This document shows, in pieces, positions 2,811 through 48,416 of a stretch of DNA of 64,000 bases; the first letter of the stretch is position 1; each line of letters begins with the position of its first letter. Location: the NCBI GenBank assembly GCA_963579905.1, contig CAUZIZ010000003.1:3249-67248 (forward strand), given 5' to 3'. The notes beneath the pieces were generated by a model. It made no database searches. It was not told where the DNA came from and saw only the letters and a list, made by a program, of their open reading frames with translations. The position numbers and the translations under genes were made by a program. Source of the stretch: Acidobacteria bacterium UBA6911 (GTDB lineage Bacteria; Acidobacteriota; UBA6911; RPQK01; JAJDTT01).

Positions 2811-4079
2811 TCAGGAGGTCTGCAGTTTTGTGGGCATCTCGCTGAGGGGTTTGTGCTCGTGCACTTCCGAATGGTCTTCCAGTCCTTCCAGCCGGTGTGC
2901 GTACCAACGGGTACCGGGTAGGGCCGTCGGCCCGTGGGCAAACACGCTTATCAGTACCGTCAGGATCACGGTTGAGAAGATCAGCGACTCGCTCTGCAGA
3001 GCTCCCTCCCTCAGCACCAGTAGAACATAGAGGATCGAGGCGACGCCTCTAGGGCCGAACCATGCCAAGAAGACGAAAGTGTCGAAGCGCAGCCCGGATC
3101 CTAGCAGGCTGAGGCCCACAGGCAGCATCCTGATAACAGTCAAACTGAGAATTGCATAGAGCAACGAAGCCCCACTGAATAGCTCCAGAGCCAGAAAAAT
3201 CATTGCTGAGCCGTTGAAGAGAAACGTGAGCAGTGTCAAGAGTTGCCCCTCGGCCTCTGCAAACTCCCAGAGACAGGAGCAGACCTGCCTCGAGCTGTTG
3301 CCAATCGTCAATCCAGCACAGAAGGCGGCGATGACACCATTGCCGCCAACCAACTCAGCGGCGCTGTAGGAGAACACCGCCAGGCCCAGGGCTGCGAGCT
3401 GTTAGAAAGAGTGGTTCATCCACCCGGTTTGCTGTCCCCACTGGACCAACTTTCCTCCCAGGAATCCCACTGCAATTCCCACTAGCGGTCCCAGGACGAT
3501 TTTCATCGCTCCGAACCAGAGCCAGAATTGAGTGCCCTCGGCGCCGTGAGTGGCACCGGCAAGGGAGATCACCAGCAGAAGAACCGGGAGTGCCCTACCA
3601 TCATTGAGACCACTCTCCACGTTGATCGCCTGCCGAATGCGAACCGGTACTCTGGAACTGCTCAGGACTGCCTGTCCCAGGGCAGCATCCGTCGGAGCCA
3701 GGATGACCGCCAACACGGCCGCTTCCCAGAAGCTGACAAAATCGAAGATCAGGGCTGCTGCGACTGTTCCAGAAACAATGGTCAGCGGGAGGCCGATACC
3801 CAGCAACCGCATTGGGATCGTGTGCTCTCGTCGGAGGAGCTTGAGATCGATTCGGGAAGCATCGGTGAACAGAATAAGTATGAGGGTGAATTCGGCAACC
3901 AGGTTGATGAGCTCACTGTCCCGATCCAACTCGATCAAGGCAACAACCTGAGGACCAAGCACCAATCCCATGACGACGAAGGCCATGGGAGGGGTTATCA
4001 CGCTCTTACCAACGCGCCCGGAAACCAGCCCGGAACTGAAAAGGAAGGCACCCAGGACGGCGAAGGCCAGTGTCTCCAT
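2811..4079 (-). pseudogene. NhaP-type (CPA1) Na+/H+ antiporter interrupted by a single in-frame TAA (plus-strand 3399..3401).
   Basis: ORFs 3402..4079 and 2811..3377 are in the same frame (1269 nt = 423 codons). Reverse-complement reading gives ...GWMNHSF*QLAALGLAVFSYSAAELVGG..., a continuous multi-TM antiporter-like protein apart from the one TAA. Confidence 0.75.
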
Positions 4080-8734: not shown

Positions 8735-9124
8735 TCAGTTGGCACTGGCCGCCAACTCGTATTTCTGCAGCAATGCGAGAAAGCCAGGGTGGTCGCGGAG
8801 TGAATTCCAGGTTGGATCGATCTTCAGAAATCCCACCGAAAAGTGGGAGGGCACCGACAACAGGCGATCGAGAGTCTTGAGTGCCTCGTCATGGTTGCCC
8901 ACCATTGCGTAGATCTGGGCCAGATCTTTGAGCCGGAATCCGAGCGGCTCGTCTCGACGCTTACCTATCATCTCCATCCCCAGTTTGCCCTCTCGGACGG
9001 CGTCGTCAGGACGGCCCAGCCCCGCGTAGGCAATCCCCAACGAACTCCATACCGGGCATGAAATTGCTGGCAGGACTTCGACTTTGTAGCAATGTTCCGG
9101 GGCAGTGGGCAGTGCCGATGGCAC
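8735..9124 (-). pseudogene. TPR-repeat protein fragment.
   Basis: TPR-like helices (GIAYAGLGRPDDAVREGKLGMEMI..., YAMVGNHDEALKTLDRLL) with no plausible N-terminus. It abuts another gene fragment. Confidence 0.35.
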
Positions 9125-9540
9125 TCGGCGGTTTTCAGAGCATCAAGGAGCTTGTGAGGCCGGGTGGCCGGGTGTATCAGTCCCGGCAGGCGGTTGTCGA
9201 CGAAGTCGCGAACAACAAGTTCCTGAGTATGACGAAGCCGATGGGCGCGATGTATGCGTTAATCAAGATTGAAGATGCGATCGCCGACAGAATCGATGAT
9301 CAGACATTCGCGATCGAGCTACTCGAGAACACACATGTGCTGGTGGGGCCAGGCAGCAGTTTCAACACACCCTATATGGACCACTTTCGCATCACTACAT
9401 TGCCGGATCCTGATATAATTCACGATGTTTTTTCGCGAATCGAGTCACTGCTGAAACAGTATGCCCGATTCGATATCCTCGTTGCCGCCGGCTCGTCCCG
9501 GCGCCAGCCCACAAGAATCCAGTTTGCATCGAATGTGTAG
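9058..9540 (+). pseudogene. C-terminal ~130-aa fragment of an AlaA-like class I aminotransferase.
   Basis: AGLRLCSNVPGQWAVPMALGGFQSIKELVRPGGRVY...ALIKIED...HVLVGPGSSFNTPYMDHFRITTLP aligns with the C-terminus of alanine aminotransferase. The ~270-aa PLP-binding N-terminal part is absent. Confidence 0.6.
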
Positions 9541-9543: not shown

Positions 9544-10722
9544 GTGTGCTCGTCCTATGAGGGAAAAGAGACGAGAAATCAACGGTTTGTACTCCAACTT
9601 CTGTGGTTGCAGGGAGTCCTGCTTCTCGGGGCTTCCCTGTCGTGTGGAGAATCCCGCGACTCGATTGGGATTCGAAAAGGTCCGACCGAAGCGGTCCGCA
9701 TGAGCATACTGGAGCGCACCAGCGAGCCCCTATTGATAAGTGATCGTCCTTGGAAAAAGTTCACCCTCAACTACCTGACAGTCATCCGGGAGGGGAAACT
9801 CTGGCGTATGTGGTATGCCGCGTATGCCACGGACTACGAGTACTACAGCGATGCCTATCTCTGCTACGCAGTTTCGTAAGACGGAGTCCACTGGGAAAAG
9901 CCGGAGCTGGATCTGGTGCCGTGGAAGGACGGTCAGGTCAAGACCAACATCCTCATGGACGGCCGCAGCATGCGCGCCAATACGACCACCGTCTTCCGCG
10001 ACGATGAGGCCCCCTCTGATGAGAGGTACAAGGCCCTTCTGCAGAAGTTCCTGGGACGCGACGAGAACGGCAGGGGCGTTTGGCGCAATTCTGCTGCCGT
10101 CTCACCGGATGGCTTGCAGTGGAGTCTGCTTCAGGAACCCATCTACCCCTGGAACAGCGATACCCAGAACGTCTGTCTCAAGGACGGCGACCAATACCGT
10201 TTCTATGCCCGACTCTGGAGGGGTGTGGACAAGGCGGGGAACTCGTCCATCTCTACCGAAACCGAGAACGCGACAACCAGGACCATCGGACTGAGCGAGT
10301 CCTCAAAGTTCTCCCGATTTCCCAAGGCTCAGGAGATCCTGGCACCAGATCCTCAGGATCCGGACGACATGGATTTCTACAACAACGCCTGCACCCGAAT
10401 CAAAGAAGACCTCTACGTGATGTTCATCTCGGCTTTCTACAAACCCGAAGGGGTCATCCGGGTACTGGGGGCCTGGAGTCGCGATGGCCGCTCCTTCCAG
10501 CGACTGGGCCGCAAACCACTTCTGGGTCTGGGTGAGGGTGAGGGATTCGACTCCAAGGTCCTCTACGTTGCCCCCGGAGCGGTCCCAGGACCGCGACCCG
10601 ACACCTACTGGTTCTACTACCTGGGTCAATCAGCCAAACATGATGACAATGTTCCTGGAAAGGTCCATCACGGGGCGGGAGTAGGGAGGTTCTTGGTCGA
10701 GATTCTGGATGGCGGTTCGTGA
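9544..10722 (+). pseudogene. GH130-like (DUF377) secreted beta-propeller glycosidase/phosphorylase-family paralog with an in-frame TAA at 9877..9879.
   Basis: ORFs 9544..9879 and 9916..10722 are in one frame. The read-through is ...AYLCYAVS*DGVHWEKPELDLV..., matching intact paralogs (CYPISEDGYHWEKP at 10835.., SQDGIAWEKP at 27868..). The N-terminal block DRPWKKF...LWRMWY is present. Confidence 0.7.
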
Positions 10723-12565: not shown

Positions 12566-12577
12566 GTCAGTAGCTGC

Positions 12578-12806
12578 CCAGCGGTGCTGCCCCATTCGAG
12601 AAAGAAACTTCCGGCTACTGGGGATTTGTGCGTCACTGCGTGGGGAAGAGTTGTCCAGCTCTCCTCGGAACTTGGCCTCATGTTGCTAACGGCTCAAGTC
12701 GTTCGCAGCTCTGTCGAACTTGGCTTCGTAACGCTGGTAGTTCACCCGTTGGCGGCACCTTCGGAGGACAGGAGACGTGCGACGTATTCTTGAAGTTTCG
12801 GCTTAG
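12578..12806 (+). repeat. Copy A of a ~220-bp noncoding repeat family. Other copies are at 40762..40981 (+), 54155..54326 (-) and a partial copy at 29447..29520 (+).
   Basis: Nucleotide identity with the other copies is roughly 85% (core ...cgtcactgcgtgggRaagagttgtccRgctctctcctcggaacYtggYctcatgYtgctaacggctcaagtcgttcgcRgctctgWcgRacttgSc...). The overlapping small ORFs differ by indels between copies, so the element is not protein-coding. Confidence 0.7.
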
Positions 12807-13374
12807 CCCCGCCACCGGCTGCGCTGGATCGTACATGAAAGAAACTGGTGCCCCCAGGACAGGCGGTGCAGAAAGGTTGTATAATCTTTCTATGAGTCTT
12901 CTGGGACGAGGGTTGGCTTGGACGCATCTAGTGGTGTTCGGTGCAACCATATCCTGTGCCCTGGCGTGTCCGCAGTTTGAGGTGAGTGAGGCAGCATCCT
13001 GTTCGGAACCTCAGTCGAGTAGCTGCTGTACGTACCCTATAGAGGGCAAGTGTCTTGGGTGTGTCGACACCAATTTCTTCGAACCAAGCAAGCATACTAC
13101 GCTGGCTGCGCCCCTTCCCTCAGACTACACTCGCGTCAATCTAACCGAGAACAATCTTCCCGAGCCACCTTTTCAGTCAGCGTCCTTTGTTATAGCCAAA
13201 TCCATTTTTCTCACAAACAGCGCTTTCCTGATTTAGTCTCTCCGCCCTTCCGTCATTTCCGTTTGATTGCGGCGATATCTCCTTCGCCAAAATTGTTCGA
13301 CCTACAGCTGTCCCATGCGGCCGTCCTTGCACGGTGGCACCGGTTGCGGGGACATGAAGAGAGGGATCAATCTT

Positions 13375-15117: not shown

Positions 15118-15834
15118 TCGATGTCCGACGATTGGCCGAGTTTCAGTTTGGACATAGCCTGTCTCGAAACCGCACAGAATGGCACCTTGAATGTTGGGGA
15201 GGATGGCCTATGGATAGTCTCGAATACGTTATCAGGGATGACTTCCAGATTTACAAGTCAGGGGGAATTCTGATCTCGCTTGTCGGGATGGATCTCTCGC
15301 AGGACGCGATCGTACACGCACAGAGGAAGCGGCAAGAGCTGGTCTCGAAAACGTCCAGTTTGTGGAAGCCGATCTCAGCGAGTTCGATAGAACCGTCGAG
15401 CCCGGATCCTTCAACTTTGTCACAGCCTTTGATGCCATCCACGATCAGGCCATGTCCTCAGGGGTATTCATCGGGCGTTGAGGCCAGACGGAGTCTACCT
15501 GATGCAGGACATCAGCGGATCCAGCCACGTCCACAAGGATATCGAGCATCCCATCGGGCCGCTACTCTATACGATTTCCTGTATGCACTGCATGACGGTG
15601 TCCCTGGCACAGGGAGGAGAAGGTCTAGGTGCGGTGTGGGGTGAGGAGAAAGCGCGCGAATACCTCCCAGAAGCCCGATTTTCTCTCTATCACGACACAC
15701 CGCCTTGCACACGACATCCAGAACAACTGGTACGTGGTGACGAAGTGAGCCCAGATCTCCTGCGGGTTCCCCTTACGGGGGTGGAAACCCCTCGCCTTCA
15801 GGAGAAGAGAGGGTCCCCGGAGAGTACCGAGTGA
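15118..15834 (+). pseudogene. Class I SAM-dependent methyltransferase disrupted by at least 3 frameshifts.
   Basis: MTase blocks are split over three frames. Motif-I-like TLNVGEDGLW is in the frame of ORF 15016. GILISLVGMDLSQDAIVHAQRKRQELV is in the frame of ORF 15132. [36 protein letters not shown] is in a third frame. [16 protein letters not shown] is in ORF 15478. Junctions coincide with short G and T runs. Confidence 0.55.
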
Positions 15835-19845: not shown

Positions 19846-20893
19846 GGACTACTGTGGAAAGAGGCTCTGCCCCAGTTGGGAATCCACAAGCAGGTCGAAT
19901 ACCACCTCGGTTGGTGAAGCAGCAGCAAAGCGCCCGCGACAGATCAGACCGTTGAGAATGATCCGTGCAGGGGTTTTAAGCTTGCAGCAATCAGGAAGCA
20001 TCCGGGTTGGGTCAAGGCTCATAACCTCTGGTATCGGCTAAGAACCCCGCTGCTTTAATAATCGCCGCCCGTAAAAACTCGAGGCGGCTGGATCTTCAGG
20101 ACGGGGATTAGGCGGCCTGGAGGATATTCTAAAACAATGTACCTCCTGCTTCTACAACCCTTTAATCGTTGGATCGGAAGGGGAAATAGGATGAACCAGG
20201 GTTCGGAAACCCTGGGCTGAAATACGGATTCCCTTCAGAATCCAAAGGGAGCAGGATCCTTTTCCACATAGCTATATTTTCCTGAAGAAGCACCTGTATC
20301 ACACATGCTTCGACCTCTCGCGACGCAAATGCTACGGACTAGACTAAGCACACCGTTTCATAAATACGGTAACGTTTGCAGATGGGGCTTGCGAGGCGAG
20401 ATCAAGGCAGGAGGAAGAAGACGACGCCTGGACATCTTCGACGACGACCAACACAGAGATCGTCCGCAACCCCCATCTGCCCGCCGGGTGGCGACGGGAC
20501 GCGCCGATTTCTTTGTCTCTCCTCCTCCACTATGGCAAGGCATGGCGTTCGTCGGCGATTCGATGACCTGCCTGTTTTGGTCCGTTTCGGAAAATCGGCA
20601 CGTTTCTTACTTTCGACATCCTCATGGTGGTCGCCGGGCGGTAGCTCGGACGACTTATTCTGATTTCGTGGAGTGGACGCCAGAGGTTGCCATGAGATAT
20701 TCCGATACCGGTACATCGACTCCATCGCAGCACTTGTACACGAACCAGACCCAGCCTTACTTCCGGGCGCCACATATTTATATTGCCCTTCCCGCGCGTT
20801 ACTTTCCTGGGAAAAGGGTGCTAACCGGTCAGGGAGCGGGGTCCGCTCCCTATGTTGTGGGAAAATTGGTTACGTAATTCAAGAGTTTTTGCG

Positions 20894-21942
20894 CTAGAAC
20901 ATTTCCGTGCCCCACAGATCGTGCAGATGAATCACCCCAACGACCCTTCCGACTTCATCGGGAACTACCAGAGCGGTGATCTTTTTCCGCTCCATCAAGT
21001 GAAGTGCTTTGACAGCCAGTTCCTTCCGTCCTACCGTGACCGGATTGGGGGTCATACATTCCTGAGCAGTCTGTTCTAGGACAGCGGCGCGTCTGCGCTG
21101 GAGCAGTCTTCTGAGGTCTCCGTCAGAGATCACCCCTACCAGCAGACCCTGCTCCTCTACGACGCAGACAATTCCCAGTGCCATTCGAGAGATCTCGTAA
21201 ATGACCTCGTCCATTGGCGTTGATGTTCGCACCTGAGGGATCTCGTTTCCCGTATGCATCAGATCGCCTACCAGCGCCAGTTTCTTGCCCAGGCGACCGC
21301 CTGGATGGAGTCGGGCGAACTCTGTCAGACTCAGTCCCTTCTCCTGAGAAAGGGCAATCGCCAGGGCGTCTCCCAAAGCGAGCGCGGCTGTGGTGGAGGC
21401 CGTCGGTGCCAGGTCGAAGGGACAGGCCTCTCTGTCGACGCCGACATAGAGGACCAGATCAGAGTTGCGCGCAATGGTCGACTCACCGTCACCAACCAAA
21501 CTAATCAGGGGATGCCAAGGCGTTTTACCGTAGGGATCAAGCGTACAATCTCATCCGTCTCTCCACTGTTGGAAACGGCGAGCACCAAATCACCGGGGGC
21601 CAACATGCCCAGGTCACCGTGAATCGCTTCTGCCGGACTGAGAAAAAGTGCTGGAGTACCCGTGCTGGCAAGCGTTGCCGCAATCTTCCTGCTGATGACT
21701 CCCGATTTTCCCATTCCAATCATCACCACGCGACCCCGACAAGCAGCCATCCAATGCACTGCTCGATCGAATTTCTCGTCCAGTCTGGGAACCAGAGCAG
21801 AAATAGCCGCCGGTTCGATCTCTAGAACTCGACGGGCGGTTTCCCGGGGGCGGCAACCTGTAATATCAGAGACGCCAGAGTCAATACCTCGGGCATCGAC
21901 TGATTCTGCTTCAGCGCCCCTGCTGCGACTTCTCGGTCTCAT
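20894..21942 (-). pseudogene. kdsD: Arabinose-5-phosphate isomerase KdsD/KpsF (SIS + tandem CBS) with a -1 frameshift in a G4 run (plus-strand 21508..21511).
   Basis: ORF 21505..21942 (SIS: GMGKSGVISRKIAATLASTGTPALFLSPAEAIHGDLGM...SNSGETDEI...KRLGIP) stops. The protein continues in another frame as LISLVGDGESTIARNS...ACPFDLAPTASTTAALALGDALA + CBS pair (ORF 20894..21499). This is colinear with E. coli KdsD ...KRLHVPLICITG.... One extra G would restore the frame. Confidence 0.8.
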
Positions 21943-21947
21943 CTTCC

Positions 21948-22763
21948 CTACCCTTTGCTAACCTGTCGATTTGCTTGAGGACCCTCAAGCAAATCGATCT
22001 GCAACGCGTTGGGACCATCGCTCAGCGCCCGATCCGGGTCATCATGGACCTCCAGAAAAAGGCCGTCCGTTCCAACCGCAACTGCCGCACGAGCCAAATC
22101 AGGAATGAACTTAGGTTCACCTGAGCTGGAACCGCCGGCACCTCCAGGCATCTGGACGCTGTGGGTTGCGTCGAACACGATCGGAAAGCCGAACCGCCGC
22201 ATCGTGGTCAGATCCTTGAAGTCGACTACCAGATTGTTGTAGCCGAAGGTGACTCCTCGTTCCGTCACCATCAGTCGAGAATTTCCTGTGCTCTCTGCCT
22301 TCTTCAGGACCTGGCTGATGTCCCCGGGAGCCAGAAACTGTCCTTTCTTGATGTTGACGACCTTCCCGGTGGCAGCAGCGGCCGCGATCAGATCGGTCTG
22401 GCGACAGAGAAAGGCCGGGATCTACAGAACGCCCAGCACCTTGGCGGCAGGAGCCACCTGAGAGACCCTATGGACATCGGAAAGGACAAGGAGGCCCAAC
22501 TCCTCTCGAACCCGGGAAAGAATTCTCAAGCCCTCATCCACGCCGGGTCCGCGATAGGATCGTACCGAGGTTCGGTTGGCTTTGTCGTAGGAAGCTTTGA
22601 AAACGAAGGGGATGCCCAGGGAGGAAGTGATCGCTTTCAGCCGGGTCGCCATCTGCATACAATGATCTTCACTCTCGATCACGCAGGGACCTGCAATGAG
22701 AAAGAAGGGATTCTGCCCTCCCACTTCCCATCCGTTGAAGGAGATCATTCGAGGAGACGCCAT
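21948..22763 (-). pseudogene. kdsA: 2-dehydro-3-deoxyphosphooctonate aldolase (KDO-8-phosphate synthase) with an in-frame TAG (plus-strand 22419..22421).
   Basis: ORF 22422..22763 gives the KdsA N-terminus (GIPFVFKASYDKANRTSVRSYRGPG). The same frame continues ...[37 protein letters not shown]...[13 protein letters not shown]...VFDATHSVQ...[26 protein letters not shown]. The stop sits where E. coli KdsA has Gln (VIQLPAFLARQTDL), consistent with CAG to TAG. Confidence 0.85.
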
Positions 22764-23008
22764 GTTCTCTCGATCAACTCATGGTGAGTAGAAACTTCGA
22801 CGGGCACCGGAAGGATTCCATGCTCGTCGTACTTCTCCTGTTCAACGCCGGTAATCGGAAAGAGCTCCGCATTTGGTCGCGCAATTCTGAAAGCTGAAAA
22901 ATCCATGCGTGAAGTCAGCAGTCACAACATTCTCGCCGACCACGTCTCAGGTTGACAGTACCTCCCAGATGGCTTATGTCTCCATCTACAGAAGTGAAAG
23001 AGAGAACA

Positions 23009-24451: not shown

Positions 24452-24588
24452 GATGATTCCCTCCCTTTTGGAAAGGGTGATAGAACGCCAAATGAAGGGT
24501 TCTTTGGTTACTCCGTGTGAGCCGCGATGTACGGAAATTCTTGCTTCAGCGCTTCGCACCGCATCGCGAAGTCTTGATGGCTGGTTCC

Positions 24589-25452
24589 CGGGTACTGAAA
24601 CGCGGTGAAAATGAAAAGGCTTCCGGCTCCGGGCCGCTCCACCACGTGCTCTACAAAGGACATCGCTTTCCGTGTGAAATCATCAGTCGTACCGTGTGGC
24701 TCTACCACCGCTTCACGCTGAGTCTTCGAGATGTCGAGGATCTGCTGGCTGAGCGTGGCGGCGGCGTTTCCTATGAGACCATTCGCTGTTGGTGTTTTAA
24801 ATTCGGATCCCAGTACGCCAAGTCGATTCGAAAGAAGCAAGGTCATCTAAGCGACATTTGGCATGTTTATGAGTTGTTCGTGAGGATCCGAGGAAGGCAG
24901 GTCGACCTGTGGCGAGCAGTTGATCAGGATGGCGATGTTCTCGACATTCTGGTGACCAATCGCCGGGACAAACGAGCTGCCAAACGTTTCTTCCGCAAGG
25001 TGTTGAAGGAACAAGGCCGTACCCCGTGGAAACTCATCACTGACAAGCTCAGGACCTACCCAGCCGCACATCGCGAAGTGTTCCCCCCAGTTGGGCATAG
25101 AACCGGTCAGTATGAGAACAACCGGGCTGAAATTTCGCATCAATATACCCGGGAGCAAGAGAGGCAGATGAGAGGGTTCAAATCAATCCAGCAGACTCAA
25201 CGATTCCTCTCTGTCCACGGTCGGATTCAGAATCTATTCCGAGTTGGCCGACACCATCTCAAAGCAGCTCACCATCGACTGCTTCGTGACAGAGCTTTTG
25301 CCTCCTGGAGGGAGGCGACGTGTGTCCGCTGAGGAGGAAGAAAGCTGGGGTATATCCCGGCTCGGAATCGTCTGGCCAACATTAAGTTGACAGCGCCGAC
25401 TTGAGGCTTTCAACGGCTACATAATTGACTATAGTGGCCGTTTTCTAGGTCC
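24589..25452 (+). mobile_element. IS6-family insertion sequence (boundaries approximate), 30 bp from tRNA-Pro.
   Basis: It carries one IS6/IS26-type transposase. The candidate imperfect terminal inverted repeats are ggtactgaaacgcgg (24589..) and ccgttttctaggtcc (..25452). The ~860 bp size fits IS6. Confidence 0.55.
24645..25332 (+). CDS. IS6-family (IS26-like) DDE transposase.
   Basis: KGHRFPCEIISRTVWLYHRFTLSLRDVEDLLAERGGGVSYETIRCW...DLWRAVDQDGDVLDILVTNRRDKRAAKRFF...TDKLRTYPAAH...YENNRAEISHQ is colinear with IS26 Tnp26. ORF 24517..25332 is trimmed to the GTG at 24645. Confidence 0.8.
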
Positions 25453-29379: not shown

Positions 29380-31337
29380 CAGTCAGATCAGCGAGCCCCT
29401 CTTCTTCCGCTGGATTATTCAGGAAGAGAGGTGCGGTCGGGGACTCGGAAGATTTTTCTGTTGTCCACTCTCTCCTCGGAACTTGGCCTCGGATTGCAAG
29501 CTGCTCAAGTCGTGCGCGGATTTGGTTTGCTTTCCCATCCATTGATGCTGGTGATGGGGGGGCATTTCGGCGTGCTGTTCCAGGTTTCTTGATTTTTGTT
29601 CTTGCTGTTGCGTCTGGCTGCAGTTCGCTCTTCGAGCTCCCCACCGTTGCTACGGGCCCGGCCAGTGCCCCGGGAACGGCAGCCATCACGGTCAACGGCA
29701 GCGTTAATCCGCACGCGGTGGCAACTCATTACTATTTTGAATATGGCACCTCGGCTGCCTACGGAAAGAGAACGCCTGTTCGTGAGCTTCCTTCACGCCT
29801 GGCGGCGTACTTCTACGAAAGCTGGGATGAAGGCCCGGGAGGGTGGACGACCTGGGGTGTGAAGCAGTCTTTGCACCGAGACGGCGGACACTCCAACGGA
29901 TTCTTGAGGATTTCCGAGCCCAGCACCTTGAACGACTACAATCACAGGATGGCCGGAATTCTCCATCTGGCCAAATTCTTCTACTCGGGACCGGTCTACA
30001 AGAGTGCGTACCTGGGTGGAGGTGATCCCGATTTCAGGGATGCCCGGGTCCGTCTCTGGGTGCGCGGAAATGACTGGAAGCCGAACGGGTCCGAGCTGGT
30101 CTGGTGGACCCAGAGTCAGAGTAATATCGAGGCGGGGAATCAGAGAGGCGTTTTCAAACGCGCCAATTGGGACTATACCGGATTCACGCTGACCGCCCAT
30201 CTCCGCGACGGCAATTGGAATCGGGTCGAGTACCGGCTTCGCAACGACACCACCCAGTGGACGTATGGGGGGAGTAACCTGGGTTCGGACGGGCGCAAGT
30301 ACTATTCATATCGGTCCATTGACCAGGCTCTGGGCCATCTCAACTGTAATTTTTTCCATCTCCTGGCCTTTGTCAATCCCCACAATCCTCCTACTGGATC
30401 GATCGATTTCGATGAGTTCGAGCTTGCCTATCGCAACGAGTCTCTGGTTTTTCCCAGTAATGGAGGGAAACTGATCGACTGGCGCCGATACTCCAAAGTA
30501 GATCCCGCAACCCTGACGGACGGATGGCGACACGGCGAGGACCGGATGTGGAAGAGCCAGGAAAATCCCGCCGGTCCCCGGGAATTCACCTACACCTCCG
30601 AATCCGAGGTCACGATCGATACGGTTCAACTGCACCAGAATCCCGAGTGGCCGGGCAAGGGCGTGGAGGTTCTGGTCTCGGCGGACGGCAACTCCTATCA
30701 GTCAATCCTGAAGCGGCCCTTTCCAGAAAAGAGCAATAGCGGCCCCAATTTTGACTTTGTCGTCGAGCAGGGACTCGCCAGCAAGGCCCGATATTTGAGA
30801 GTTCGTCTCTCTTCTGGCTATCAGCGTCGCTACTGGGGATTGGGAGAGATCGAGATTTTCGGTAGCGGCGCTACCATGGTCCCCGATGACGATGACTACT
30901 ATGTGAATACCGATCTTTACGATGTTAAGCCGGGTGAGACTTGTCACTACAGGCTGGTGGCGACCAACAGTCACGGGAGCGGCTATGGAGAGGATCGGAC
31001 TTTTACCCTTCCTGCGTCGGACCAACCGCAGGTCCTGAAGGGGCAATCGAGTCGTATTAACGGTTCGACCGCCAGGCTGCAGGGAAGAGTCAATCCCATG
31101 GGCGTGCCCACCTATTTCTGGTTTGAGTGCGGCACCGACGAGGAGTATGGATCGAAGACCGAGGTCAGGTATGCGGGTCTCGAGCAGACCCCACGGACGG
31201 TTTTCGAGACCCTCACTGGATTGGGATCCGGAACGACGTACTACTACAGGACCGTAGCAGTCAACGGAAGTGGTACCGGATATGGAGATGCCGCTAGATT
31301 CAGCACGACAACATTATCCGCGTCCGAGGGACGATAG
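29376..31337 (+). CDS. Secreted/lipoprotein carbohydrate-binding protein with FN3-like tandem domains and an F5/8-type-C (discoidin)-like domain.
   Basis: Repeats GSVNPHAVATHYYFEYGTSAAYGKRT and GRVNPMGVPTYFWFECGTDEEYGSKT. Discoidin-like YLRVRLSSGYQRRYWGLGEIEIFG. Lipobox-like LAVASGC. The ATG at 29376 overlaps the upstream stop (ATGA), but the first ~70 aa overlap repeat copy D, so the true start may be TTG 29589. Confidence 0.6.
   Translation: MTVRSASPSSSAGLFRKRGAVGDSEDFSVVHSLLGTWPRIASCSSRARIWFAFPSIDAGDGGAFRRAVPGFLIFVLAVASGCSSLFELPTVATGPASAPGTAAITVNGSVNPHAVATHYYFEYGTSAAYGKRTPVRELPSRLAAYFYESWDEGPGGWTTWGVKQSLHRDGGHSNGFLRISEPSTLNDYNHRMAGILHLAKFFYSGPVYKSAYLGGGDPDFRDARVRLWVRGNDWKPNGSELVWWTQSQSNIEAGNQRGVFKRANWDYTGFTLTAHLRDGNWNRVEYRLRNDTTQWTYGGSNLGSDGRKYYSYRSIDQALGHLNCNFFHLLAFVNPHNPPTGSIDFDEFELAYRNESLVFPSNGGKLIDWRRYSKVDPATLTDGWRHGEDRMWKSQENPAGPREFTYTSESEVTIDTVQLHQNPEWPGKGVEVLVSADGNSYQSILKRPFPEKSNSGPNFDFVVEQGLASKARYLRVRLSSGYQRRYWGLGEIEIFGSGATMVPDDDDYYVNTDLYDVKPGETCHYRLVATNSHGSGYGEDRTFTLPASDQPQVLKGQSSRINGSTARLQGRVNPMGVPTYFWFECGTDEEYGSKTEVRYAGLEQTPRTVFETLTGLGSGTTYYYRTVAVNGSGTGYGDAARFSTTTLSASEGR
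29447..29520 (+). repeat. Partial copy D of the ~220-bp repeat family.
   Basis: ttgtccactctctcctcggaacttggcctcggattgcaagctgctcaagtcgtgcgcgg aligns with the core of copies A, B and C. It lies ~70 bp after the GH130 gene stop. Confidence 0.5.
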
Positions 31338-31435: not shown

Positions 31436-31522
31436 GCGAAAGTGGCGGAATTGGCAGACGCGCCAGATTTAGGATCTGGTGGGTGAGAGCCCGTGGGGGT
31501 TCGAGTCCCCCCTTTCGCACCA
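31436..31522 (+). tRNA. tRNA-Leu(TAG): tRNA-Leu (anticodon TAG) with a long variable arm.
   Basis: GCGAAAGTGGCGGAATTGGCAGACGCGCCAGATTTAGGATCTGGTGGGTGAGAGCCCGTGGGGGTTCGAGTCCCCCCTTTCGCACCA. Acceptor stem GCGAAAG/CTTTCGC. Anticodon loop TT-TAG-GA. T-arm GGTTCGAGTCC. Confidence 0.9.
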
Positions 31523-34192: not shown

Positions 34193-34438
34193 TTGACCAG
34201 GGAAGCCGGCTCCCTCTCCACTCGCTCAGCGGCACGATGGAGCCCGAACGATCTCCCCGGCTTCGCCCTGGAGGAGTCTCCCGTGATCTGGGGGGATGAG
34301 ATCGCGTACATAGTGAGGTGGGAGAGGAGTCACGCCCGAGCAACATCGGAGAAGCCCCTGGCCAGCCTGGCTGGCCAGCCTGTCCGCCTGCGTTTCGTGT
34401 TGAAGGATACAGATCTCTACTCGCTGAGGTTCCAGTAG
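34193..34438 (+). pseudogene. C-terminal ~60-aa fragment of a GH130-like paralog.
   Basis: ...LPGFALEESPVIWGDEIAYIVRWERSHARATSEKPLASLAGQPVRLRFVLKDTDLYSLRFQ is near-identical to the C-terminus of 39113..39718 (...LPGFALEESPLIWGDEIEHTVRWERGYAKATSDRPLGRISGKPVGLRFVMKDADLYSLRFR). Confidence 0.6.
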
Positions 34439-37312: not shown

Positions 37313-37838
37313 CGGGCCGACTTCATCCACTACTTCAGGAGGTTTGTACCTGGATTGGCGAGGCTCCAGTTGTACCAGAAGGCATCGAAACCACTCAGCT
37401 TGACACTCTGAGGGGCCCTTTCGAATTGCCCTGTTGTGGGATTGAAGCTCGCCCCCGTCGCCTCTTCAATCCAGGCCCCTTCCTTCCTGCGATAGCCTCC
37501 CTCCAGGAGGACGAAAGCTCGAGCTGCCTCAGATGGCCACAGTAAGGCGGTCCGTCAACTGGCCTTCCCCTTCGGAAATATCAGTCGAAGGGTCTGTGCG
37601 CCACGTGTTGTTCGCATCTTTTTCGAAAACAAGGTCAGTGTCGTCCTCAACTGGGCTGAGGAACTCAAGCGGCTGGTGCCGACCGAGAACTGAGACGAGC
37701 CAGTCTGTTTGTCGTCCAGTTATCGTCCAGTCAGAAACCTATAGGATATCGTCAGAAATCACTCGATCGATGCGGAAAAAACCCAGGAACCAATTGAGTT
37801 TTCAGTAGTTTTCGTTAGATTTCACGTCGTTGTCCAAC

Positions 37839-37896
37839 AGATTTAGGATCTGGTGGGCGAGAGCTCGTGGGGGTTCGAGTCCCCCCTTTCGCACCA
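37839..37896 (+). repeat. 58-bp direct repeat of the 3' half of tRNA-Leu(TAG) (attR-like), 56/58 identical to 31465..31522.
   Basis: agatttaggatctggtgggCgagagcTcgtgggggttcgagtcccccctttcgcacca differs from the tRNA by 2 positions. The similarity continues ~10 bp past the tRNA end. Confidence 0.8.
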
Positions 37897-39112
37897 ATCA
37901 AATCAATGACTTAGCGCGAAGCTACGAAAAGGCGAGTGGACACACTATTTATCTCCGTCCACTTTTCGTCCACCTTGAAGTTCACGCTTTTCGGCCTCTC
38001 GGACTGATTCAATCGCGTGTTCTTCCGGTGTACCCAAGTTGATCGAGTCCGGGTGGCCTGCTTGCTCCGGGCGAGAGCCAAAGGAGAGACCAATGTCTCA
38101 AGAGAGAAGAAAGAGCGAGGATCTCTGGGCTCCTATCGTCTTGCCGTGAAAGGCTCCCGTGAAGGACTCAGAGTCTCGTCGAATAGGCCCAAAAAGCTCT
38201 CCCGGACAAAAGTGCGGTAGTAGTAACCCGATTATGTTTGCCAATGTCAGGCAGCGAGACCCGGGACAAATTTTGCTGCCTGGTTGTCCACCCAGAGTCC
38301 GGGGGTCCATGCGAAGAATCGAATCGGAACGGGCTCGGGAGGCTGGGAGAATACTTGTCCAACGCCAGGGATCGTGGCGGCCTCGCTCATGGAACTCACA
38401 AGCACAAACAGCGGAGGCCCGGAACTGTCCTCAAAAATCAACTGCGCCGCGACCGGAAATTCGGTCATCGACAGGGTCTTCACGGGCACACTGCGCACCG
38501 GGAACGTGGCGAACAGCCATTGTTCGAATTGGACGGACGCCACAGGCGCCGGTGCGAGCGCGGTCAATGGAGAGAGCGACTTCAAAGATGTGAGATGGAC
38601 TGAGGACGGGGTAGAGCCTGGCTCTTTCTTCAGTCGCCTCTATTGCTTCGAAAGCCAATAGGGAAAGGCCACGGCCAATTCCCAAGTGCGTCCTTTTCGG
38701 TTCTCCGGCCACGCCGCCGCTGACCCACCCCAACCATCTTCCCACGTACTCCCAAAGCCGGGCAGGCTCCTGATCGTAAAGTCGGGTTGCCCGTTAGACG
38801 AATTGCTCCAGGGTCTTCTGGGCTACGCCGAGTCCGTCGGCTCCGAAGTGGTAGCCCAGGAAGTCGAATCCCTTCTCGATGGGCCCGATGGACGTCTTCT
38901 CGGGATCCTTTTCCAGCCCCCAGTCCCTGCTTACTCCTCACTGCTCGAATCCCTACGGAAAACTCACCAAGAATCTCCTCATCTGCCATTCTTCCATCGC
39001 CCTGCCGCAGTACTCAGCGCCCTGTTTCTTCTCTACAACCTGCCATCACGCAAAGCAATCTCGGGGTAGTCCAGGCTCGTAGGATCGAATCAGCGAGTTA
39101 GCGGCCCTGTTC

Positions 39113-39718
39113 CTACCGGAACCTCAGGGAGTACAGATCCGCATCTTTCATGACGAATCGCAGCCCCACCGGCTTCCCGGAAATCCGGCCCAGGGGCCTA
39201 TCTGAAGTGGCCTTGGCATAACCTCGTTCCCAGCGCACCGTGTGCTCGATTTCGTCTCCCCAGATCAGCGGTGATTCCTCCAGAGCAAAGCCAGGAAGAG
39301 GATTTCCCTGGATATCCTGGATCTCCACACGGATGCTGCCGGCTGCGGAGGTGGCGAAGTTCAGCACCAGGTTGTCCCCGTTGAAGACTAGCGGTTTCGT
39401 GACAAGCTCGCCGCCTGCATAGCCCGCATGCACTGAGACGAATCCATCCGTTCGGAGCACCATCCGCTGCACGTGGACACTGGGAAAGGTGTAATGGCGT
39501 TGAAGGTAGAGAGAAATCTCGTCCGCTGCCGTAGCCACGACTCCGGAGGCAGGTGTATTGGCTCGATGAATCCAGTTTCGGGGGTGCCTGCCCGGGCGGA
39601 TAAAGGCCTCCATGAAGGTCCGCTGCCAATGAAATCCGTCTCGACTGCTGAGAAGGACTACGTCTGAAATACCAGACCTCGGATTTACCCTGAACGGTTC
39701 CAGGGTGCGCCTGGGCAC
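39113..39718 (-). pseudogene. 5'-truncated GH130-like paralog (C-terminal ~200 aa only).
   Basis: ...SRDGFHWQRTF...GGELVTKPLVFNGDNLVLNFATSAAGSIRVEIQDIQGNPLPGFALEESPLIW... aligns to the C-terminal half of the intact paralogs. An in-frame TAA lies 8 codons upstream of the first possible start (GTG 39716..39718). The upstream region belongs to a different gene on the other strand. Confidence 0.65.
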
Positions 39719-39744
39719 TGCGCGCTGCCGAGCCCGGTTGGCTT

Positions 39745-40646
39745 ATGGTGTCCATCCTGGCCACCATCGCCACCTACTGGATCCAGGCACTTCGCTGGCA
39801 GTGCTACCTGCGCCCGGTAGGTCGCGGCCCCTTGGCCTCCTCCTTCAACATCCTGGTCATCGGAAACCTGGTGTCGACCGTTCTTCCGGGCCGGTTGGGG
39901 GACATCGTTGCGCGGGCCTTACTGATGCGCCGCTGGGAAGGGATCCTTGCGGTAAAGACTTCAGCAACGATCGAGGTGGAACGGTTATTTGACGTGCTGA
40001 TGCTGATCGGCTGCTTAGCGGTCTATTTCTACTTCTTTCAAGAAGCCGACTCCTCGGCTGACTTCTCGGCAGCCTCCAGCACTGGAATCTTATTGTTCTT
40101 AGCAGGTGCCCTTGCCACCGTTTTTCTGGTCGTTCTGCGCTTCCAGCACCGAGCCGTTCTAGGCTTGCTGGAGCGATCACTGCAGCCGTTTCCCGGGCGC
40201 CTCCGGCACGCGCTAAAGGAGAGGGAACATGCCTTTGCCGCTGGCCTGGAGCTGTTCAGTGATCTCCACAACACGGCGCTGTCGATCTTTTCTACTCGTT
40301 CGCGCCCTGGTTGGCGCATGCGGTCGCTCTCTGGGGTGTGATCAAAGCAATGGAAATTTCCTCCTTTCGGCCCTCGGATACTCTGCTCATGGTCGGACTG
40401 GGGAGCGTCGGCATGGCCATTCCGACACCAGGGGACATCGGCTCACTCCACTACGCGCTATTCTGGGGCCTGGAGAGAATCAGCGACTCGCCCGACGACA
40501 GCCTGCGGGCCGCCGCGATTCTGTCCTGGGCAATCGGGGTCCTCCCGGTGACCCTTCTGGGATTTCTGGCACTGGCGAGGCGGGGCCTGCAGTTCATGGA
40601 ACTGGTCACCATTGCCAAGCCGGAACGAGAGGATGGGGCGGGATAA
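39745..40646 (+). pseudogene. UPF0104 / lysylphosphatidylglycerol-synthase-TM-region-like (flippase-like) membrane protein with a -1 frameshift in a T4 run (40288..40291).
   Basis: ORF 39745..40341 ends ...SIFSTRSRPGW*. The overlapping frame (ORF 40311..40646) reads ...VDLFYSFAPWLAHAVALWGVIKAMEI...PTPGDIGSLHYALFWGL. Adding one T gives a continuous SIFFYSFAPWLAHAV. Confidence 0.6.
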
Positions 40647-40761
40647 GTCGGGAAGGCACTCGATCCTCTGGAGGCTCTCCTTTCCGGGGTTCTGAAGGAA
40701 TATTCTGGTAGGAATTTGAGTCACAAATTTCAGTTCAGTCCCGCCCCCAGGAAGCCCTGGC

Positions 40762-40981
40762 CTCACTCGAGAAGGAAACTTCCCGCTATTGGGAAGATTG
40801 TGCGTCACTGCGTGGGAAAGAGTTGTCCGGCTCTCTCCTCGGAACCTGGTCTCATGTTGCTAACGGCTCAAGTCGTTCGCGGCTCTGTCGGACTTGCCTT
40901 CGTCACGCTGGTACTTCACCCGTTGGCGGCACCTTCGGAGGGCAGGAGACGTGTGACGTATTCTTGGAGTTTCAAGCTTAG
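40762..40981 (+). repeat. Copy B of the ~220-bp repeat family.
   Basis: It aligns end to end with copy A (12578..12806), with several single-base indels. It lies between the UPF0104 gene and nqrA. Confidence 0.7.
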
Positions 40982-41110: not shown

Positions 41111-42463
41111 GTGAAGCGATTCAAGATACGTAGAGGACTCAAGCTTCCGATCAGCGGCGAACCTGATCAGCGCATATCCCAGGGGAGAAGCGCCAAAACG
41201 GTCGCTCTCCTGGGTCGTGATTATGTCGGAATGAGACCCACCATGCTGGTTAAGGCTGGCGACAAGGTGACATTGGGTCAGCCTCTCGTTGAAGACAAGA
41301 GGAACCCTGGCGTCATCTTCACCTCTCCAGCTGCCGGACGGGTCGCCTCGGTCAACAGGGGCGAGAAGCGAGCCTTCCTCTCCATCATCATCAGTCGGGA
41401 AGGCCATGCTGCCGCCCAATTCGAGCGGGTCTCGTCCAACCAGCTCGAATCAGCGGGAGCTGACAAGATTCGACAGGTCCTGGTGGACTCGGGGATGTGG
41501 CCGGCTTTCCGCTCGCGGCCCTTCAGCAATGTGCCGGCCATCGACGCGAGCACCAATTCTATTTTTGTCAGTGCGCTGGACACCAATCCGCTGTCGGCAG
41601 ATCCTGCTCTTGTAATCGGCGCACATCAGGAGGCTTTCCAGAACGGGCTCCGAGCCCTTACCCTCCTGGCGTCTTCGAAGGTCATCGTCTCTCGTGCGCC
41701 GGGCTCGGAAGTGGTCATTCCAGATCACCCGAAAATTGACGGCTTTGAATTCCAGGGACCCCATCCAGCTGGTCTGGTGGGAACTCACATCCACTTCATC
41801 GATCCGGTGGGAGAGAGGAAGACGGTCTGGCACGTCGGCTATCAGGATGTCATCGCGATTGGAAAACTGCTCACTACCGGCACACTTTGGACCGAGCGCG
41901 TAGTTTCTCTCGCAGGACCCATGGTCCGGGAGCCGCGCCTGATCCGGGCGCAGCTTGGCGAGTGTCTGGGAGATCTAGTCGAAGGCGCGCTGAAAGAGGG
42001 TGAGAGCCGCCTGGTCTCCGGCTCAGTCTTCGCGGGCGATCTGGCTGGTGTATCTCCGCTGAATTACCTGGGTCGCTACCATACTCAGATTTCGGTGATT
42101 CGAGAGGATCGTTCGCGAGTCCTGCTCGGCTGGCAGGGGCCGGGTTTTGACACCTTTTCGACAAAGAACGTGTTTCTGTCCAAATTGAGATTCGGCCGGG
42201 AATTCGACTTCTCGACAAACACCAATGGAAGCAGGCGCGCGATGGTACCCATTGGCATGTATGAGGGTGTGATGCCCTTGGATATCTTTCCCACCTATCT
42301 CTTGCGCGCCCTGGTTTCTGAAGATCTGGAAAGCTCGGTTTCTCTGGGGGCCCTCGAGTTGGACGAAGAGGATCTGGGCTTGTGTTCTTTTGTCTGCCCG
42401 GGAAAAACGGAATACGGCCCGCTGCTGCGACAGATGCTCACGAGGATTGCCAAGGAAGGGTAG
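41111..42463 (+). CDS. nqrA: Na+-translocating NADH:quinone oxidoreductase subunit A.
   Basis: N-terminus [18 protein letters not shown] and length are typical of NqrA. It is the first gene of a six-gene nqr cluster. Confidence 0.9.
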
Positions 42464-42470
42464 CGAAGGA

Positions 42471-43691
42471 ATGAAGCCTCTGCGGAATTTTCTCGATGGT
42501 CTGGAACCATCCTTCAAAGAGCGTGGGAAGCTGGAGAAGCTCTACCCTCTTTATGAGGCCCTGGACACCTTTCTCTACACACCCGGTGACGTGACTCCAG
42601 AGGCTCCCCATATCCGTGATGGCATAGACCTCAAGCGGATGATGATCACGGTCGTCGCTGCCTTGGTACCCTGCATCCTGATGGCACTGTTCAATACCGG
42701 CTATCAGGCCAACCTGGCTCTGCAGGAAATGGGACTCACAGAGACTATCGGTTGGCGGGCGGCGCTCATTGCCTGGTTGGGCGTTGGTTACGACCCGCAG
42801 AACTTGATTGCCGACGCAGTGCATGGAGCGCTTTACTTCGTCCCCGTGTTCCTGGTAGCCAACATCGTCGGCGGTCTAGCGGAAGGGACCTTCTCGATTA
42901 TCCGAAAACACGAGATCAATGAGGGTTTCATGGTAACCGGGATGCTATTCCCCCTGATCCTGCCCCCGACCGTGCCTCTGTGGCAGGTTGCCCTGGGAAT
43001 TCTCTTCGGCGTCGTGGTGGGAAAGGAAGTTTTCGGGGGCACAGGCAAGAATTTTCTCAATCCGGCCCTGACGGCCCGAGCCTTTCTCTATTTTGCCTAT
43101 CCGGCCCAGTTATCGGGCAACGCAATCTGGACAGCCGTCGATGGTTTCAGCGGTGCCTCGGTCCTTGGCCTGGCGGCATCCGATGGAATGGCCGCCGTCC
43201 AGCAGCAGTACACGTGGATGGATTCGTTCCTCGGCACCATCCAGGGATCGATGGGAGAGACCTCGACCGTCGCCTGCCTGCTTGGTGCCGGCCTATTGAT
43301 TCTCACCGGCGTTGGCTCCTGGAGAATCATGCTGAGCTGCTCCGCCGGCGCTCTGGCGACCTCCTGGATGCTGTACTCGATTGGCAGCGATACCAACCCC
43401 ATGTTTGAGATGTCGCCGGCCTGGCATTTCGTGGTCGGAGGGCTCGCTTTCGGGATCGTGTTCATGGCAACGGATCCCGTTTCAGCAGCCTTTACAAATA
43501 TCGGTAAATATTTCTATGGGATCTTGATCGGTTTCATGGCGATTCTGATCCGGGTAATCAACCCAGCGTTTCCAGAGGGGACCATGCTTGCCATTCTCTT
43601 CGGTAATGTCTTCGCACCACTGATCGATTACTACGTGGTGAAGGCCAATATTCGGCGGCGGGCAACCAGAACCCAGGTGAATTATGTCTAA
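42471..43691 (+). CDS. nqrB: Na+-NQR subunit B.
   Basis: [13 protein letters not shown]...[15 protein letters not shown]...IDLKRMM is NqrB-like. ORF 42390.. is trimmed to ATG 42471. The stop TAA overlaps the nqrC start. Confidence 0.9.
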
Positions 43692-44451
43692 CGACACGGT
43701 CTCGAAGACATTTCTGGTGGCATTCCTGCTCTGCGTCGTCTGTGCGGTGGTCGTGTCCACCTCAGCGGTCAAGCTTCGGCCAGTGCAGCAGATCAACCAG
43801 GCCCTGGACAAGAAGAGCAATATCCTCTCGGCAGCGGGCCTACTAGAAGAAGGAGTGGATGTGGACCGGGTCTACCGGGACTCTATCGAGTCAAGAATCG
43901 TCGACCTCGACACCGGTGAGTACGCGGCCGGGGTGGATGCGGAGACCTTCGATCAGCGGAAAGCGGCCAGGGACCCAGCTCGCAGTATCGAAATAGACGA
44001 GGACCTTGCGGGTATCGGAAGGCGGTCACGCCAGGCTTCCGTGTACCTGGTCAAGAACGGCGACAAAGCAGGTCGCCTGATCCTGCCCGTTCACGGGAAG
44101 GGACTCTGGTCGACCTTGTACGGTTTCCTCGCACTCGACATGGACATGAACACGATTGAAGCCCTGAGCTTCTACCAACATGCCGAGACCCCGGGTCTTG
44201 GAGGGGAAGTGGATAACCCCAAGTGGAAGGCCCTTTGGAAGGGAAAAAAGGCCTACGGTGAAGATGGACAGGCGCGAATCGAGGTGATCAAGGGCAAAGT
44301 CGATGGATCAGCAGCTAGCGCCATCCACCAAGTGGATGGCCTTTCCGGCGCGACCATTACCTCACGTGGAGTGCGCAACCTGCTCCGCTACTGGTTGAGT
44401 GAGAACGGCTTCGGGAGGTATCTCGCACGAGTGCGACGAGAGGGAGTTTAA
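43684..44451 (+). CDS. nqrC: Na+-NQR subunit C (FMN-binding).
   Basis: Single N-terminal TM segment and the FMN-attachment region ...[13 protein letters not shown]. Confidence 0.85.
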
Positions 44452-44457
44452 CGCACA

Positions 44458-45084
44458 ATGGCAAGTCAAATTCGCAAAGTCCTCTTCGGACCGCTGTTCG
44501 AGCAGAACCCCATCGCTCTACAAGTACTGGGCATTTGTTCCGCCCTGGCAGTCACTACCAAGATGGAGACCGTGATGGTGATGTGCCTTGCGGTCATCGG
44601 CGTACTCGCCTGTTCCAATTCGGCAGTGAGTCTGATTCGCAATCACATCCCTTCGAGTATTCGAATTATTGTACAGATGACCATCATTGCCTCACTTGTG
44701 ATCGTTGCCGATCAGATCCTAAGGGCCTATGCCTATGAAATAAGCAAGCAGCTCTCCGTGTTCGTCGGCCTTATCATCACAAACTGTATCGTGATGGGCC
44801 GTGCCGAGGCCTTCGCCATGAAGAACGGTGTCTTCAACAGCTTTCTCGACGGTGTCGGCAATGGCCTGGGCTACAGCTTGATTCTGGTAGTTGTCGGACT
44901 ACTGCGTGAGTTTTTCGGCTCTGGCGCCCTCTTCGGCCAGGTCCTGCTTCCCTTGACCACGGACGGCGGCTGGTACAACGCCAACGGGTTGATGCTGCTT
45001 CCGCCCAGTGCGTTTTTCATCATAGGAATATTCATCTGGGTTCTGCGTTCGGTGAAGACCGAGCAGGTGGAGCACGAAGGATAG
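44458..45084 (+). CDS. nqrD: Na+-NQR subunit D.
   Basis: [26 protein letters not shown]... is the NqrD/RnfE family signature. Position in the operon fits. Confidence 0.85.
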
Positions 45085-45088
45085 AACG

Positions 45089-45700
45089 GTGTTCGAAGAA
45101 TACTTGAGCCTCTTTTTGAAAGCGGTCTTCGTCGAGAACATGGCGTTGGCCTTTTTCCTGGGCATGTGCACTTTTTTGGCAGTCTCCAAGAACGTGGAAA
45201 CCGCTAGCGGGCTGGGGCTCGCGGTAATCGTGGTCCAAACCATCACGATACCCATCAACAATCTCCTCTATCGCAACGTCCTCAGCGAGGGAGCGCTGAC
45301 CTGGGCGGGGCTGCCCGAGACCAACCTCTCATTCCTTGGACTGATCACCTACATCGGAGTGATCGCCGCGATGGTTCAGATCCTGGAGATGGCCTTGGAC
45401 CGTTTCGTACCATCGCTCTACAACGCCCTGGGGATTTTCCTTCCTTTGATCACGGTCAACTGCGCGATACTCGGAGGCTCCTTGTTCATGGTGGAGCGCG
45501 AATACGATTTCGGCGAAAGCGTCGTTTACGGTTTCGGATCGGGTTTCGGCTGGGCCCTGGCCATCATGGTACTGGCGGGCATTCGCGAGAAACTCAAGTA
45601 CAGCGACGTCCCCGAGGGGCTGAAGGGCCTGGGGATTACCTTCATCATCGTCGGCCTGATTTCGCTGGCGTTCATGTCCTTTTCGGGAATCCAGCTATAG
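45089..45700 (+). CDS. nqrE: Na+-NQR subunit E.
   Basis: [32 protein letters not shown] is the canonical NqrE N-terminus. Confidence 0.85.
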
Positions 45701-45706
45701 CCTGAC

Positions 45707-46921: not shown

Positions 46922-46927
46922 TCCCTC

Positions 46928-48174: not shown

Positions 48175-48416
48175 CAGAGTCCTGGCTGTGAAGGAGCGGT
48201 GGCGGGTTAAGATGGGTTAAGATCCCGCCTCGCTATCGCTTGGAGCGTAGGACGACTTCCTTGTCATCGCCCAGCGCAATTTCGAAGCTTAGAAGATCGA
48301 AGGCTCCGAGTCGATTCCAGCCCTTGAGCTCATATTATACCGGGTCGAAGGGGGACTTCCCAGCCGCTTTGCTTGAGCTTCCCACCCACACTCTTGGGGC
48401 CCTCGAATCGACTGAT

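Follow-up and report, generated by a model that had tools for sequence, protein, structure and literature searches.

Almost universally, 3-deoxy-D-manno-octulosonic acid (Kdo) joins lipid A to the core of lipopolysaccharide (LPS), and kdsA is essential in most Gram-negative bacteria. The loss of Kdo or LPS is survivable, as seen in KPM22-type suppressor strains of Escherichia coli and in LPS-null Neisseria meningitidis; LPS-null Neisseria was reportedly described by Steeghs in 1998, and the subject is said to have been reviewed by Zhang, Meredith and Kahne in 2013. Here we analyze a kdsA-kdsD pair in a stretch of 64,000 nucleotides (nt) from contig CAUZIZ010000003.1 of Acidobacteria bacterium UBA6911. 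This whole stretch is referred to as the window, and it is the part of the source genome that the analysis covers. Both genes in the window are very probably genuine, recently formed pseudogenes in a lineage undergoing widespread gene decay, and their lesions are fixed in a wild, probably marine lineage; the source metagenomes, for whose sample and run accessions a literature search found no paper, are probably marine or open-ocean water samples. The KPM22 strains and LPS-null Neisseria are mutants with compensating changes or special species, whereas a cell lacking Kdo is here no more than a possible outcome of the broken genes.

The pair shows clear homology to kdsA and kdsD of the E. coli type (DAHP_synth_1 in the first gene, SIS and two CBS domains in the second), and close relatives keep the two genes adjacent to kdsB. 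It departs from that type in that both frames are broken and in that the pair lies away from kdsB-pyrG, beside a decayed 2-hydroxyacid dehydrogenase gene and IS240. Stepwise pseudogenization and loss of kds and lpx genes, with strains at different stages, have been described in the Pantoea-like symbionts of stink bugs (PMC8032781). The strains compared here likewise carry intact, singly hit or multiply hit kdsA-kdsD alleles, although those symbionts are host-restricted and the present sequences come from metagenomes with no host association known. The Sodalis genome is described as rich in pseudogenes and in insertion sequences (PMC3091646). As far as can be seen over 64 kb, the window looks like the early-stage genome decay known from Sodalis glossinidius or Mycobacterium leprae, with dense nonsense, frameshift and deletion pseudogenes alongside transposase genes. 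It is a fresh instance of the known stepwise kds decay, in an uncultured lineage with PSCyt, PSD1 and DUF1501 proteins.

Lesions in kdsA and kdsD

The two genes and their three lesions are located as follows.

22763..21911, minus strand: kdsA pseudogene, ATG at 22763; Kdo 8-phosphate (KDO8P) synthase, 287 codons in intact alleles
22422-22424, minus strand: nonsense codon TAG at kdsA codon 114; CAG to TAG through C to T at 22424
21979..21990, minus strand: 11-nt deletion in kdsA, which leaves a single CTTGAGGGTC(T/C) unit of a tandem pair
21942..20894, minus strand: kdsD pseudogene; arabinose-5-phosphate (A5P) isomerase with SIS and two CBS domains, 349 amino acids (aa) in intact alleles
21505..21511, minus strand: frameshift in kdsD; C4 (plus-strand G4, 21508-21511) where relatives have C5, with TGA at 21505-21507 directly after

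Domains were called with Pfam on the repaired translations. Repaired KdsA matches DAHP_synth_1 (PF00793) over the whole domain (residues 14-259, E = 1.6e-69), and its best PDB matches are solved KDO8P synthases (E down to 6e-95); the E. coli structure 1d9e is among these matches, which range from E = 1e-95 to 1e-77. The repaired protein is 97% identical to P0001, an intact 287-aa KdsA encoded at the same locus as the window kdsA. Its AGPCVIES motif carries Cys, which we take to mark the metal-dependent class of KDO8P synthases, unlike the E. coli enzyme. Codon 114 is CAG (Gln) in all the intact relatives examined (L086, L087, L090-L092, L088 and L089, where L numbers denote related sequences), and in 6mdy, 3fs2 and 3tml, the three best PDB matches, its aligned counterpart is the Gln of the VLQxPAFL motif. 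The initial annotation had recognized a nonsense codon in kdsA, which is indeed present, but had placed it at 22419..22421; this is the next codon, 3 nt away from the true site. A third lesion, absent from that annotation, is the 11-nt deletion near the 3' end of kdsA. The deleted unit (CTTGAGGGTCT) sat just 5' of the surviving copy at 21979-21989, and both units are kept in the aligned sequences of L085, L086, L087 and L088-L092. The deletion puts the last ~25 codons out of frame, and the gene now stops at a TAG (21948-21950) instead of the ancestral TGA (21911-21913). With the TAG at the motif Gln and the 11-nt frameshift near the C-terminus, an uninterrupted frame for a whole KDO8P synthase is absent.

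Repaired KdsD contains an SIS domain (residues 67-197, E = 2e-26) and a CBS pair (E = 5e-18). As encoded, kdsD consists of two open reading frames (ORFs) of 145 aa and 201 aa, the frame resuming one base back after the premature TGA. The break, at residue 145, falls inside the SIS domain, and a single SIS plus tandem-CBS polypeptide is no longer encoded. The position given by the initial annotation for the -1 frameshift, the G4 run at 21508-21511, is exact, intact relatives having C5; its claim that both genes are inactivated is borne out by lesions present in the sequence and set against intact orthologs that are ~98% identical. Judged from its sequence, the window locus is predicted to yield no functional KDO8P synthase or A5P isomerase.

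Intact alleles occur elsewhere at this locus, between the same flanks. Over 2.5 kb, L086 and L087 share 97.6% nt identity with the window, and 98.1% across the two genes alone, and the intact alleles at this locus carry CAG, C5 and both 11-nt units, encoding a KdsA of 287 aa and a KdsD of 349 aa. Intact kdsA with the same flanks (97-99% identity) was found in L086, L087 and L094, and intact kdsD with the same flanks in L086; an intact 349-aa kdsD is also present in L088. The lesions in the window thus appear as specific differences from orthologs ~98% identical, for which chance would not be an issue.

Other disabled alleles were observed in close relatives. In L093 (ERZ23495067), kdsA (476-1266) carries a 10-nt deletion at codons 131-134 together with the same 11-nt deletion, on another allele background; CAG114 is preserved, and the kdsD of L093 is open up to the contig end. 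L093 represents an independent knock-out of kdsA. In L094 (4413-5483), kdsA is intact and the homology of kdsD is lost after ~codon 283. This break may be an insertion or an assembly chimera, the contig being at only 3x coverage.

Recurrence of the lesions and relaxed constraint

All three lesions are identical in the assemblies ERZ27247690, Logan SRR9039920, Logan SRR9039929 and JGI 3300031803, and ERZ27247690 differs from the window by 6 mismatches over 20.3 kb. Exact look-up of the truncated products recovered the broken ORF architecture (113, 107, 145 and 201 aa) elsewhere. In L085 (JGI 3300031802), whose allele has diverged slightly (four substitutions over the operon), the TAG and the C4 run are found as in the window, whereas the 11-nt deletion is absent and the kdsA 3' end is longer. 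The lesions are carried by five datasets besides the window assembly. An exact 35-nt pattern across the TAG/CAG site had no match in a metagenome contig collection, which evidently lacks the JGI contigs carrying that sequence.

Changes on each branch were polarized with the outgroups L090-L092, L088 and L089. On the terminal branch leading to the window, the ratio of nonsynonymous to synonymous changes (N:S) in kdsA is 7:1 (D111G, H151Q, G184D, L205M, E218K, V273A and Q114*), compared with 13:35 on the long branch to the intact allele (Fisher P = 0.002). Three of these replacements (D111G, L205M and E218K) hit residues conserved in the three best PDB matches. On the long branch to the intact allele, the ratio in kdsD is 17:58, and control genes in L096 (ERZ27247711) give 6:21 for kdsB, 12:42 for pyrG and 29:77 for priA. 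The terminal branch of kdsA fits neutral drift, and its constraint is relaxed.

The initial annotation had allowed for sequencing errors, an option that we reject given the identical lesions in assemblies from other datasets. If the lesions were errors of sequencing or assembly, the genes would be intact in the organism, and the kdsD frameshift does lie in a homopolymer, a classic error site on some platforms. However, different groups, using different assemblers on different samples, obtained the same three lesions, two of which recur in the diverged strain L085, and amino-acid replacements are in excess alongside them. A homopolymer error would account neither for the nonsense codon, a substitution, nor for the third lesion, a deletion of 11 nt. 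Because the same lesions recur across independent assemblies, we consider sequencing error excluded, leaving it a negligible chance. Active enzymes assembled from split proteins, with KdsA made of a 113-aa and a C-terminal piece and KdsD of a 145-aa and a 201-aa piece, are hardly credible either. The downstream kdsD ORF begins with TTG a few bases past the premature stop, as such an arrangement could use, but the kdsA break takes out the active-site Gln region, and the next possible start lies ~50 codons on, so that residues 114-163 would be missing. Furthermore, the kdsD break is within the SIS domain with no domain boundary there, and all relatives encode single polypeptides.

Expression through recoding, with the TAG read as an amino acid and a -1 slip on C-CCC-UGA restoring the KdsD frame, is very improbable, despite two features that agree with it: if the P-site tRNA-Pro slipped by -1 from one CCC to the CCC overlapping it, a stop codon occupying the A site, the ancestral I-P-L would result, and no excess of replacements is yet seen on the terminal kdsD branch. 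TAG, however, is the terminator of 27 of the 65 ORFs in the window, including nqrA, nqrD, nqrE and nqrF, whose TAG stops are followed within a few bases by the start of the next gene. The window tRNAs are Pro(TGG) and Leu(TAG) only, with no suppressor tRNA in the window. Orthologs in other lineages have a plain CAG and C5 in a single frame, so no recoding site is conserved among them. Folding downstream of the lesions is no better than in shuffled sequences (z = -1.23 and +0.26), and an Rfam scan of the sequence after the lesions gave only a sub-threshold snoRNA match (E = 0.11). In addition, kdsA has the 11-nt deletion and neutral-looking replacements at conserved residues, and other genes in the window are broken by TAA, frameshifts or deletions. 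Since one of these, a Na+/H+ exchanger gene, is broken by TAA, the breaks are not tied to one codon; since the C4 site is a simple derivative of the orthologous C5, nothing suggests programmed slippage. Suppression or read-through of the TAG, another option of the initial annotation, is left unsupported by a codon that is a normal terminator, by the lack of a recoding signal, and by the 7:1 drift of kdsA. Reassignment of TAG to Gln (genetic code 15) was also considered and rejected: TAG is a common terminator, the other in-frame stop is TAA, and the window contains no suppressor tRNA.

The ancestral operon site and a possible second copy

A protein search covering a database of 5.8 billion proteins found KdsA homologs at 97, 91, 88, 85, 84 and 78% identity. 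This ladder, like that of NqrA (99/90/87/77%), is compatible with orthology. In L088 and L089 (KdsA 88% and 84% identical; contigs of 0.2-1.3 Mb), the gene order is priA-JAB-DUF697-kdsB-pyrG-kdsA-kdsD. In the clade of the window, to which L090-L092 (the 91% lineage) and L094 also belong, kdsA-kdsD adjoin the 2-hydroxyacid dehydrogenase gene instead, and this relocated locus is where all database KdsA sequences of at least 90% identity are encoded. With the KdsB of the relatives as a query, a distinct KdsB type was found, which occurs in JGI, Logan, ENA and NCBI data. On contigs L096 (10001-13202), L097 (JGI 3300031803) and L098 (SRR9039920), both kdsB (251 aa) and pyrG (558 aa) are intact, and Zip and PEMT genes come next. 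In relatives these last two genes follow kdsD, whereas in L096-L098 they directly follow pyrG, and exactly 2,058 nt of kdsA-kdsD are missing relative to L088. No remnant of kdsA-kdsD was detected by tblastn at the canonical site of L096-L098.

Two of the three empty-site samples, JGI 3300031803 and SRR9039920, hold both the empty-site contigs and the window-type pseudogene locus, which in JGI 3300031803 is 100% identical over 8 kb. The source of L096, ERZ27247711, is close in accession to ERZ27247690, which has the window-type locus. The JGI 3300031803 contigs of both kinds, window-type Ga0310120_10000607 and empty-site Ga0310120_10005628, are also found in NCBI. The canonical-type KdsA clusters (84-88%) have no Logan or JGI members, whereas the distinct KdsB type does, and L096 also has split genes, with Cys_Met_Meta_PP in pieces of 128 and 103 aa compared with 425 aa in L089. 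Because of the shared samples, the presence of both contigs in NCBI, the canonical KdsA without Logan or JGI members, and the split genes in L096, it is likely that the empty-site contigs and the window belong to the same lineage and that the window holds its only close kdsA-kdsD copy. A second copy at the ancestral operon site therefore seems unlikely on the contigs at hand, and the empty canonical site moves the weight to real loss or to replacement by a distant gene.

The pseudogene verdict is compatible with a further account of its consequence, in which another kdsA and an A5P isomerase (gutQ/kpsF-type or horizontally acquired) lie outside the window, the decay is harmless, and LPS is normal. 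We regard such cover by distant genes as quite possible, though short of an even chance. Independent knock-outs occur beside intact alleles in a population at least 97% identical, as redundancy predicts; kdsB is intact and conserved over a long branch (6:21); and Kdo is essential in most diderm bacteria. Against this stand the same-sample contigs, in which the canonical site has neither kdsA-kdsD nor a remnant, and the database distribution, in which all KdsA sequences of at least 90% identity are at the relocated locus and the 84-88% canonical group is without Logan or JGI members. Moreover, the relocated pair spent most of its history under purifying selection, so that it has not been redundant for long.

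Several points weigh against reading the pair as recently formed pseudogenes whose function is gone. The terminal branch of kdsD, with an N:S of 3:4-7, still looks constrained, so the kdsD frameshift would have to be very young. Taken together, the N:S patterns suggest that the pair functioned for the greater part of its history, that kdsA died first, and that the frameshift in kdsD is very recent. Low-level ribosomal slippage on C-CCC-UGA in kdsD may be conceivable. The empty site is linked to the window genome by sample co-occurrence and by the distribution among database sources, not physically. At synonymous sites, kdsA and kdsD differ from L088 somewhat more than kdsB and pyrG do, so the pair could have a different history, as an older paralog or through transfer from a relative. 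An intact kdsB under purifying selection over a long branch fits a pathway in use, with a replacement kdsA elsewhere. Finally, Kdo, lipid A or LPS may still be made.

Gene decay in the window and a proposed history of the pair

Three further features lie close to the pair.

22764..22951, no strand: shortened region upstream of kdsA; ~850 nt with the 2-hydroxyacid dehydrogenase gene gone, junction near 22767-22776
20557..20805, plus strand: relic immediately downstream of kdsD, from a paralogous family without Pfam match; covers no more than residues 142-234 of a 462-aa homolog (tblastn, L095 proteins)
24517..25332, plus strand: IS240-family transposase gene (Pfam DDE_Tnp_IS240), 1.75 kb from kdsA

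The 2-hydroxyacid dehydrogenase gene is itself in different states among the strains: it is split in two in L094 (2577-3570), fragmented in L090 and L092, partly kept in L085, and deleted in the window and L086. The upstream deletion is thus common to the window and L086, and the TAG is common to the window and L085, which is not a tree-like distribution. Because the combinations of lesions and upstream deletion are not tree-like, they suggest recombination or recurrent slippage among co-circulating strains.

By a rough count based on Pfam and on comparison with the relative L095, the window has ~14-15 degraded and ~34 intact-looking loci, so that roughly a quarter to a third of its recognizable loci are degraded. 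Degraded loci are found at 2811-4079, 8735-9540, 9724-10332, 34253-34435, 39116-39685, 39709-40643, 48236-49149, 50939-51445, 51777-52549 and 52717-53777. The in-frame TAA of the Na+/H+ exchanger gene is at 3402-3404. Only the C-terminal fragment of an aminotransferase gene remains, the LPG_synthase gene has lost 79 N-terminal residues and is frameshifted (390 aa and intact in L095), and a 533-aa VWA-like gene is down to three out-of-frame pieces. An MFS transporter ends after 128 of the 347 profile positions. Splits affect HDOD and Pyr_redox_2 genes, and the paralogous family without Pfam match is represented by four relics in the window. An IS91-type transposase gene is also present.

The last 60 nt of the tRNA-Leu(TAG) gene (31436-31522) are repeated at 37838-37897, 6.4 kb downstream, with 97% identity, which looks like the signature of an element integrated at a tRNA gene. 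The interval between the repeats holds a sodium:solute symporter, a 249-aa ORF, an IS91-type Zn-finger transposase fragment and a BNR-repeat protein. An interspersed intergenic repeat of ~100-330 nt, with copies 80-93% alike, occurs at 12577-12809, 40725-40975 and 54017-54352, with shorter copies near 15768-15822 and 29451-29519. It may be MITE- or REP-like. Copies also occur in L088, L089 and L095, and L096 has the most. As a lineage marker the repeat was rejected, all relatives carrying it at similar identity.

PSCyt1/PSCyt2/PSD1 and DUF1501 proteins and a complete nqrABCDEF-apbE operon are encoded at 18-2726, 54369-57131, 57678-59051 and 41111-47953, and the PSCyt, PSD1 and DUF1501 proteins point to a lineage of the Planctomycetes-Verrucomicrobia-Chlamydiae (PVC) or Planctomycete-like type. 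The nearest named homologs of KdsA and KdsB belong to Acidobacteriota (62-70%), and those of NqrA to Planctomycetes or Gammaproteobacteria (~55%). In a scan of a genome collection with repaired KdsA, the best among the matches listed was 66% identical (Acidobacteriota).

A history consistent with these observations can be proposed. The ancestor would have had the operon kdsB-pyrG-kdsA-kdsD, which is still so arranged in more distant relatives. In the ancestor of the clade with at least 90% KdsA identity, kdsA-kdsD would have come to lie at a new site beside the 2-hydroxyacid dehydrogenase gene, the old site being emptied, and the relocated pair would have stayed under purifying selection for most of its history. 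Constraint would then have been lost very recently, with different strains acquiring different disabling mutations. In the window strain, kdsA would have been hit first (CAG to TAG, six replacements) and later by the 11-nt deletion through repeat slippage, and kdsD would then have been hit by a 1-nt deletion in the C5 run.

What followed for the cell can be put in graded terms. That Kdo synthesis by the kdsA-kdsD route is truly lost or dispensable is a possibility of the same standing as cover by a distant kdsA and a gutQ/kpsF-type A5P isomerase elsewhere, and we leave a small chance for outcomes other than these two. The more specific proposal, that a planktonic marine diderm lineage of PVC- or Planctomycete-like type is abandoning Kdo, with the pair moved, independently knocked out in co-circulating strains beside surviving intact alleles and an unbroken kdsB, and no other copy in the genome, is rather unlikely. 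If true, it would mean a free-living cell that can dispense with Kdo-containing LPS in its outer membrane, and a population truly without another kdsA would offer, among wild diderms that are not endosymbionts, a rare example of life without Kdo. The co-circulating intact and knocked-out alleles could then serve to date the loss of Kdo. If a backup exists, the locus would be a clean, ordinary case of a redundant pair decaying. In both cases, the window shows pseudogenes to be unusually frequent in this uncultured, probably marine lineage.

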